24,319 bases of DNA from positions 1-24,319 of the IMG/VR virus record IMGVR_UViG_2923302340_000011. One strand, 5' to 3'. The notes beneath the pieces were generated by a model. The model searched no databases. It was given only the letters and a program-made list of their open reading frames with translations, and had not been told where the DNA came from. The position numbers and the translations under genes were made by a program. Of this stretch, positions 12,898 through 13,020 are shown piece by piece; position 1 is the first letter of the stretch; every line of letters starts with the position of its first letter. This DNA is from a virus (taxonomy: Duplodnaviria > Heunggongvirae > Uroviricota > Caudoviricetes).

Positions 12898-13020
12898 CTC
12901 CACTCCTTAAATAGCCTCACTGTGGGGCAACCAAAATTGTCACACCGTGCGTCATTGAAGTCAACCCCACCGTGGGGCATAATTTACTTATTGTGAATTT
13001 TTCCTGTTTGGACTAATGGT
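12898..13020. promoter_or_regulatory. Divergent promoter/operator region between arc-ant and mnt
   Basis: Three palindromic CACYGTG motifs at 25-bp spacing (12918, 12943, 12968). Candidate Pmnt: -35 TTGAAG (12955-12960), 17-nt spacer, -10 CATAAT (12978-12983). Candidate leftward -35 TTGACT on the minus strand overlaps it. Confidence 0.5.

Follow-up and report, generated by a model that had tools for sequence, protein, structure and literature searches.

The region between two divergent repressor-like genes, arc-like and mnt-like, in a 24,319-nucleotide stretch of phage DNA (Caudoviricetes; IMG/VR record IMGVR_UViG_2923302340_000011, positions 1 to 24,319; the whole stretch is called the window here) carries three CACYGTG heptamers. 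These heptamers are most likely the cores of three 17-bp operators, O1 to O3, at which the flanking ribbon-helix-helix (RHH) repressors control two back-to-back promoters. Sequence comparison identifies the element as a rearranged form of the immI control region of phage P22, with three operators, that is widespread in enterobacterial prophages. This reading draws on the sites themselves, their symmetry and conservation, promoter-like hexamers, the homology of three encoded proteins to P22 proteins and the similarity of the sites to the P22 operator Omnt. It does not describe a new kind of system but a tidy regulatory module, and it illustrates how the textbook P22 immI circuit is rebuilt once its promoters no longer overlap. 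The silence of a prophage, and at times that of its neighbours too, depends on antirepressor modules. Many enterobacterial prophages have such a cassette in their tail operon, and Shiga-toxin phages carry a related one.

Three 17-bp dyads and two candidate back-to-back promoters

The features on which the argument rests are the following:

11737-12657, minus strand: ant, P22-type antirepressor gene, 306 amino acids, cargo of the Pant operon (Pfam, PHROG and identity to P22)
12730-12897, minus strand: arc-like gene, 55 amino acids, ribbon-helix-helix protein, start ATG at 12897
12913-12929: O1, AGCCTCAC-T-GTGGGGCA, contains motif 1, at about +1 to +17 of the leftward promoter Pant, directly after its -10
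12936-12964, minus strand: candidate promoter Pant, -35 TTGACT (12964-12959), 17-bp spacer, extended -10 TGtGACAAT (12944-12936)
12938-12954: O2, TGTCACAC-C-GTGCGTCA, contains motif 2, no mismatch to the consensus
12955-12983, plus strand: candidate promoter Pmnt, -35 TTGAAG (12955-12960), 17-bp spacer, -10 CATAAT (12978-12983)
12963-12979: O3, AACCCCAC-C-GTGGGGCA, contains motif 3, inner 13 bp a perfect palindrome
13021-13395, plus strand: mnt-like gene, 124 amino acids, N-terminal ribbon-helix-helix and predicted helical C-terminal domain

The heptamers, CACTGTG at 12918-12924 and CACCGTG at 12943-12949 and 12968-12974, start 25 and 25 bp apart and lie between two start codons, the ATG of arc-like at 12897 (minus strand) and that of mnt-like at 13021. 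A first-pass annotation of the window had described them at 12918, 12943 and 12968 with 25-bp spacing between the two repressor starts, and both direct reading of the sequence and a pattern search agree. The longer context that it had seen twice, the 12-mer CACYGTGGGGCA, has exact matches in the whole window at 12918 and 12968 only, that is, in O1 and O3. Scored by script, every heptamer centres an imperfect 17-bp palindrome of the form 8+1+8 with six of eight positions symmetric, and the full sites follow the consensus TGnCnCAC-N-GTGnGnCA (half-site GTGnGnCA).

The significance of the sites rests on their clustering and on the extended motif, not on the bare 7-mer, whose count in the window (10 found, 7.4 expected) shows no significant enrichment; three heptamers within 60 bp appeared in one of 400 first-order Markov simulations of the window. 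The decisive evidence that the sites exceed chance is their conservation in 82 distinct related loci. A short-arm repeat search found no individual dyads. Between 12898 and 13020 neither TAGA nor TCTA occurs, and hence no TAGA-type Arc operator, and inspection of the region by eye revealed neither a LexA box nor a LacI-type even palindrome. Two further matches in the window are probably due to chance: a pair of CACCGTG heptamers at 17925 and 17952 (17925-17958, minus strand; 27 bp apart) lies inside an open reading frame for a tail protein and lacks the dyad extension, and the 17-mer TGCCACACGGAGCGCCA at 20216-20232 (plus strand), with one mismatch to the consensus, has a broken GTG core.

The promoters are matches to the consensus, each with nine of 12 hexamer positions and, for Pant, an additional TG. 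Candidate Pant reads into arc-like and then into ant. The two promoters stand back to back with their -35 hexamers overlapping by 2 bp on opposite strands (12955-12960 and 12959-12964). O2 occupies the Pant spacer, overlaps the extended -10 and stops 1 bp short of the Pmnt -35, and O3 occupies the Pmnt spacer and reaches into the last two bases of the Pant -35. The overlap of the motifs with a Pmnt -10 CATAAT, also part of the first-pass annotation, was confirmed: O3 covers the first two bases of this hexamer, which is paired with TTGAAG at 17 bp.

Conservation and variation among related cassettes

Related loci were collected by protein-guided IMG/VR scans with the Mnt-like and Arc-like proteins and by an exact-pattern scan with the O2 sequence. 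The resulting set of about 160 loci comprises 68-82 distinct intergenic versions (IMG/VR and genome loci). Nucleotide diversity (pi) is 0.46-0.50 in the spacer that separates O1 from O2 and 0.40-0.44 at the third positions of codons for the invariant N-terminal peptides, compared with 0.164 in O1, 0.036 in O3 and 0.014 in O2. Within the sites, the centre base is neutral-like (0.50 in O1 and 0.41 in O3), as expected of a dyad centre that is not contacted. O3 reads AACCCCAC-N-GTGGGGCA in 82 loci, with C, G, A and T at the centre in 56, 18, 5 and 3 cases; O1 reads [T/A/C]GCC[C/T]CAC-N-GTG[A/G]G[G/A]CA in 81 relatives and varies only at +/-8, +/-4, +6 and the centre. Besides the centre, the variable positions of O1 and O3 are the symmetric +/-4, +/-6 and +/-8, with transitions only at +/-4 and +/-6. 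The half-sites of O2 are near-invariant (left in 80 and right in 77 of 82 distinct loci). As the right half, GTGCGTCA, lies outside every promoter hexamer, promoter function alone is an insufficient explanation for its invariance. By these measures the sites are under strong purifying selection, while spacer and synonymous positions are saturated.

The 55-bp block 12936-12983 is nearly invariant as a whole. In relatives, Pant has the form TTGACA/TTGACT - 17 - TGT-GACACT/GACAAT, Pmnt combines a -35 TTGCTG, TTGATG or TTGAAG with the -10 CATAAT (63 of 68) or CATACT (5 of 68), and the overlap of the promoters at the -35 only is kept. The distance between O2 and O3 is 25 bp in 81 of 82 loci, because two 17-bp promoter spacers flank the overlapping -35 hexamers. 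O1 and O2, in contrast, are 24 (34 loci), 25 (6), 26 (37) or 27 bp (4) apart, so that the equal 25-bp spacing in the window is incidental. Of the two properties from which the first-pass annotation had argued for operators, symmetry therefore stands, in the form of conserved 17-bp dyads, whereas helical phasing at 25 bp is ruled out by the variable O1-O2 distance.

Three parts make up the conserved cassette: an arc N-terminus reading MEKAKDMYQRKVRFP, the sites O1 to O3 together with the promoter hexamers, and the N-terminal mnt sequence MSREDPQLRIRLP, which is invariant in 66 of 68 loci. It is found in Escherichia, Salmonella, Citrobacter, Klebsiella, Enterobacter and Yersinia, and throughout these hosts the presence of the sites is strictly tied to that of the invariant RHH N-termini. 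The cargo that follows arc differs between loci (P22-type Ant, BRO-N and KilA-N types), as does the genomic neighbourhood. Among the approximately 160 loci, arc N-terminus, operators and mnt N-terminus are always linked, the exceptions being one locus without arc (L073, which keeps mnt, O2 and O3 and also lacks O1) and a few frameshifted mnt genes; most other loci that seemed to lack arc or mnt proved to be misses of the regular expressions.

Pooled half-sites give GTG-n-G-n-C-A. In O1 and O3, purines are the usual bases at +4 and +6 (GTGGGGCA, GTGAGGCA, GTGAGACA), and O2 has GTGCGTCA or GTGTGACA. These types are exchanged between positions. O2-type half-sites (GTGTGACA/G) occur in O1, as in loci L212 and L271, whose O1 carries GTGTGACA, and O1 of L282 is CGTCACAC-G-GTGTGACG; O1/O3-type half-sites, GTGGGGCA or GTGAGGCA, occur in O2 of L057 and L012. 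The sites therefore form one recognition family. O1 to O3 are the only conserved palindromes in the region, with no second palindrome for the Arc-like protein.

More distant cassettes retain the layout and differ in sequence. In a Salmonella P22-like prophage (L164), Mnt with the strand PQMKIRLP and Arc with PQRKFRFP flank, in the same back-to-back layout, the sites TGGACCGT-A-GTGGTCCA, TAAACCAC-C-GAGGTCCA and TGCACCAC-T-GTGAGCCA. A Citrobacter locus (L169) combines the Mnt N-terminus DKFTVRFP and the Arc-like strand KTTLRYP with three AAGTCAA-N-TTGACTT-type sites, and the cassette of prophage Sp6 of the Sakai strain (E. coli O157:H7) has three TATCAC-N-GTGA sites. In all four cassette types, the window family included, three sites lie between divergent arc-like and mnt-like genes, and the sequence of the putative operators follows the RHH N-termini across the four specificity types. 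Both repressors change together among these types, so that this covariation does not tell which protein reads the sites.

Within the window's own family, Escherichia phage TL-2011b (NC_019445; L287) is the only deposited phage genome in the collection. Its DNA is 75% identical to window positions 12730-13150 over 92% of their length, with homologous arc-like gene, O1, O2, promoter block and mnt N-terminus; a P22-type Ant gene follows arc, as in the window, although the genomic neighbourhood differs. O3 of TL-2011b is AAGCACAC-G-GTGAGGCA, and the beta-strand of its Arc-like protein has R in place of K (MQKAKEMCQRRVRFP).

Comparison with P22, proposed circuit and competing explanations

P22 immI is composed of mnt, Pmnt/Pant with Omnt and Oarc, arc, sar and ant, and the same gene set and order is present in the window: mnt and arc-ant are divergent, Ant is of the P22 type, a candidate two-hairpin antisense RNA spans the arc-ant junction, and both repressors are RHH proteins homologous to P22 Mnt and Arc. 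Ant matches Pfam P22_AR_N (5.4e-45), P22_AR_C (4.6e-28) and the PHROG anti-repressor Ant (4e-96), and P22 Ant is 56% identical to it (tblastn). The Mnt-like protein, whose beta-strand PQLRIRLP presents Q, R and R to DNA, matches the Pfam Arc domain (3e-7), and its closest solved structure is P22 Mnt (1mnt_A, E=1.5e-3, residues 3-43). A single-sequence AlphaFold2 model, of low confidence (predicted local distance difference test score 55) and used for secondary structure only, is all-helical after residue 55. The Arc-like protein, encoded by the first gene of the antirepressor operon with the P22-type ant downstream, has the beta-strand YQRKVRFP with DNA-facing Q, K and R. It matches Pfam Arc with E=1.1e-3 and 19.2 bits, below the curated cut-off of 20.4, and the PHROG Arc-like repressor with 1.3e-5; a phmmer search of PDB returned designed proteins only, which we took as spurious. 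Its homology to P22 Arc is established by a transitive link, as it is 49% identical to Arc of L164 (E=5e-13), which in turn is 39% identical to P22 Arc (E=4e-12).

P22 Omnt, AGGTCCAC-G-GTGGACCT, is likewise an 8+1+8 site, and O1 to O3 share with it both this geometry and the CAC-N-GTG core; the P22 half-site is identical to TGCCCCAC at five of eight positions. In the P22 record, Omnt lies at the Pant start, the equivalent place to that of O1, and Oarc lies between the Pant -35 and -10. P22 Mnt and the Mnt-like protein share R2, P5 and R10 and differ at the other two DNA-facing positions (H6/N8 versus Q6/R8); the half-sites differ too, GTGGACCT in P22 and GTGGGGCA in the window. There are also clear differences in architecture. 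Whereas P22 has one Omnt and one unrelated TAGA-type Oarc of 21 bp, the window has three operators of one family. The P22 promoters overlap fully (Pant 14793-14821, Pmnt 14798-14826, on opposite strands), whereas those of the window overlap at the -35s only and start about 61 bp apart. Unlike in P22, one operator is located inside the Pmnt spacer, which implies that mnt may be repressed directly. Lastly, the C-terminal domain of the Mnt-like protein is longer than that of P22 Mnt and unrelated to it in sequence. Homologues, conserved promoters, likeness to Omnt and purifying selection thus speak for the view of the first-pass annotation that the motifs are likely operators for the Arc-like and Mnt-like repressors, although separate Arc-type and Mnt-type sites did not emerge, all three belonging to one family.

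From the conserved hexamers we infer that both candidates are active sigma-70 promoters. Pant would then transcribe leftward through arc-like, the sar-like-controlled junction and ant, and Pmnt rightward through mnt-like. With a repressor tetramer on O1 or O2, RNA polymerase would have no access to Pant and the antirepressor would stay off, and occupation of O3 would shut off mnt. The logic would be that of P22 immI with promoters touching only at their -35s, and because they no longer fully overlap, each promoter spacer has one operator of its own and the Pant start a further one. We infer protein binding and the assignment of proteins to sites as follows. Like P22 Mnt, whose tetramer places two dimers on one operator, the Mnt-like protein is probably tetrameric. 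It would occupy all three sites, silencing Pant in the lysogen by way of O1 and O2 and regulating its own gene through O3; that it binds at least O1 and one other site is the likelier case, given the similarity of sites and protein to Omnt and P22 Mnt and the locus that has mnt, O2 and O3 only. The Arc-like protein would act on the same sites after infection and shut both promoters, and in favour of its binding, O2 and O3 lie at the position of P22 Oarc. Truly shared sites gain in probability because the DNA-facing residues of the two proteins are near-identical (Q/K/R and Q/R/R) and no other conserved palindrome is available to the Arc-like protein; we regard such sharing as only slightly short of an even prospect.

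A fuller version of this model is more tentative: two repressors would read one shared three-operator code, the Arc-like protein for a short time following infection, the Mnt-like protein during lysogeny, within a cassette that joins a modular Mnt head to at least five C-terminal domains and to varied antirepressor cargo. The swapped C-terminal domains of the Mnt-like protein might set the oligomer state or sense different signals. If true, a shared code would be a different solution from that of P22, whose repressors have unrelated operators, and the cassettes would provide a natural panel of orthogonal RHH/operator pairs (of the GTGGGGCA, GTGGTCCA, GTGGACCT, AGTCAA and TATCAC types). With its operators, promoters and likely logic at hand, the switch is directly testable. 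Within the family, moreover, changes of one or two beta-strand residues (H/N, Q/K, Q/R) go along with changes at two operator positions, a natural series that is useful for an RHH recognition code and for orthogonal synthetic repressors.

Several points weigh against the proposed circuit. O3, the most symmetric and best conserved site, lies on the mnt promoter, which would be odd for the strongest site of a maintenance repressor, as P22 Mnt is not known to autorepress. O2 is unlike O1 and O3 in having a pyrimidine instead of a purine at +/-4 and an invariant centre C, so that it may serve a different protein or have a tuned affinity. The promoters are consensus matches only, the searchable literature yielded no binding, footprint or transcript-start data for this family, and the cassette parts always travel together, so that the comparison cannot separate the two proteins. 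In the TL-2011b clade, moreover, the exchange of K for R in the Arc-like strand coincides with the changed O3, whereas the Mnt N-terminus is unchanged; this single event hints that the Arc-like protein may read O3. The last point leads to the main rival explanation, a division of labour as in P22, in which O1 would be the sole operator of the Mnt-like protein, O2 and O3 would serve the Arc-like protein in shutting Pant and Pmnt after infection, and the Mnt-like protein would not regulate its own gene. Positional homology favours it, with Oarc between the Pant -35 and -10 and Omnt at the Pant start, as do the much stronger conservation of O2 and O3 relative to O1 and a comparison of L164 with the window, in which the Arc residues Q/K/R and the O3-type site (GTGAGCCA/GTGGTGCA versus GTGGGGCA) stay similar while O1, O2 and Mnt residue 8 differ. 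However, O1 and O3 are the two sites most alike in the window and both contain CACYGTGGGGCA, half-sites are exchanged between O1 and O2 in relatives, and L073 has Mnt, O2 and O3 but neither arc nor O1. As the region also lacks a TAGA-type Arc operator and the favourable covariation rests on single events, we consider this division unlikely, though a serious competitor to shared binding.

Two other explanations dispense with the flanking repressors altogether. The sites might reflect nothing but the promoter core, that is, two promoters with UP-like and spacer effects made uniform by a recent spread of the cassette, with palindromes that bind no protein. O2 and O3 do coincide with the two promoter spacers, the block 12936-12983 hardly varies, and the cassette is mobile and mosaic. 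On the other hand, promoter spacers are normally free of sequence constraint, and diversities of 0.40-0.50 at synonymous sites and in the O1-O2 spacer indicate a cassette old enough for neutral change. Furthermore, variation within the sites tracks dyad symmetry (a free centre and transitions only at +/-4 and +/-6), O1 is constrained though outside the promoter hexamers, and different RHH N-termini go with different palindromes in the same places, all of which makes an explanation by promoters alone very improbable. Still less credible is binding of the palindromes by a host factor or by a prophage regulator encoded outside the cassette. Nothing specific speaks for it, apart from an unrelated gene in locus L251 that carries two motifs, whereas the sites co-occur strictly with invariant RHH N-termini in six host genera and change when these N-termini change, and neither a LexA box nor a LacI-type even palindrome is present. 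We therefore keep operators for the flanking repressors as the preferred reading.

Insertion site, related prophages and further observations

On its minus strand the window encodes a lambda-like cluster of tail genes, with three additional genes, ant, arc-like and the divergent mnt-like, inserted between L and K. Further features of this setting are:

10945-11721, minus strand: K-like tail gene
12626-12733, plus strand: candidate sar-like antisense RNA with its promoter (promoter scan, fold, alignment)
13381-13405: hairpin ACCCACC-TGAT-GGTGGGC at the right boundary of the insert, terminator-like when read on the minus strand (terminator scan)
13412-14110, minus strand: tail gene L
14110-14439, minus strand: tail gene M
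14436-16985, minus strand: tape measure gene

The candidate promoter of the sar-like RNA, TTGATA-17-TATACT at 12626-12654, lies inside the 5' end of ant and has 10 of 12 consensus positions plus TG in the promoter scan. The predicted RNA (about 12661-12733, roughly 70 nt) comprises two hairpins and a T-run, and its sequence is complementary both to the ribosome-binding site of ant and to the spacer between arc and ant. It folds with -28.1 kcal/mol (z -4.3) into the two-hairpin layout of the annotated P22 sar, and its terminator stem can be aligned with those of P22 and Sp6. An Rfam search of 11500-13600 gave no match to the sar family, its sole match being a chance RybB (E 0.87). With a P22-type Ant, a candidate sar-like antisense RNA and homologues of Arc and Mnt, the locus can be classed as an immI-like "ant moron", a term for an independently regulated insertion in a late operon (PMC2629481); here the operon is one of siphovirus tail genes, and the insertion point lies between L and K. 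The P22 module, in contrast, precedes the podovirus tailspike gene.

The hairpin at 13381-13405 separates tail gene L from the insert and at the same time encodes the last mnt-like codons (..KKPT stop). The KKPT ending is common to many variant Mnt C-termini, and the hairpin sequence also ends the unrelated Mnt-like gene of Sp6 and the Shiga-toxin (Stx) phages, which explains matches of 70 bp in genome searches. Judged by these matches, the hairpin seems to mark a recombination boundary that ant morons at the L/K junction have in common.

Among 5,426 complete E. coli genomes, the exact arc/mnt/ant module (window 12650-13450) was found in a single one, that of a strain isolated from a pig in Quebec (NZ_CP062871; 99.8% identity over the module), whereas the flanking end of the L gene is present in 4,309 genomes. 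The annotation of NZ_CP062871 by the Prokaryotic Genome Annotation Pipeline has the same arc-like coding sequence and the same overall arrangement. The Sp6/Stx cassette, in contrast to the rare module of the window, is common. Sakai Sp6 (ECs_1556 "transcriptional regulator", ECs_1557 "phage antirepressor") and Stx-converting phages have the same L-cassette-K insertion point, the boundary hairpin, the KKPT C-terminus, divergent mnt-like and arc-like-ant genes and three intergenic sites with CAC-N-GTG cores. Their Mnt-like (APYSVRMP) and Arc-like (SRILVRIP) strands and half-sites (TATCAC-N-GTGA) differ, their sites are spaced by 36 and 23 bp, and the proteins are 35-48% identical to those of the window over parts only. 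For the cassette family of the window, the searchable literature comprised work on P22 and genome descriptions, and no experimental work.

In TL-2011b (locus at 30507-31227), which comes from a haemolytic uraemic syndrome outbreak strain, a frameshift interrupts the mnt-like gene about 10 codons from its start, whereas the arc-like gene and ant are intact; its antirepressor may therefore lack a maintenance repressor. Locus L123 has a similar mnt truncation. In the Salmonella P22-like prophages L164-L167, the antirepressor cargo behind the related cassette varies (KilA-N, ANT and pRha fragments), and a hok/gef-family toxin gene lies next to the tailspike gene, illustrating the rapid turnover of ant morons.

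Mnt-like proteins combine the invariant DNA-binding head of 40 amino acids with at least five unrelated C-terminal domains (forms of 86-91, 117, 119-126 and 143-151 amino acids) that have no Pfam match. The C-terminal domain of the window protein is also found on a different RHH head in Citrobacter (P0018/L169), with the junction at LLELAIRV. The variants are a case of domain-level recombination in a small repressor.

Finally, a gene for an AAA-type ATPase on an unrelated viral contig of IMG/VR (L251, about 3470-3535) carries, in O1-O2 order and separated by about 43 nt, CACTGTGGGGCA and an exact copy of the 17-mer CACACCGTGCGTCATTG. Chance does not account for this pair, which could be a relic of recombination or a distal target site.

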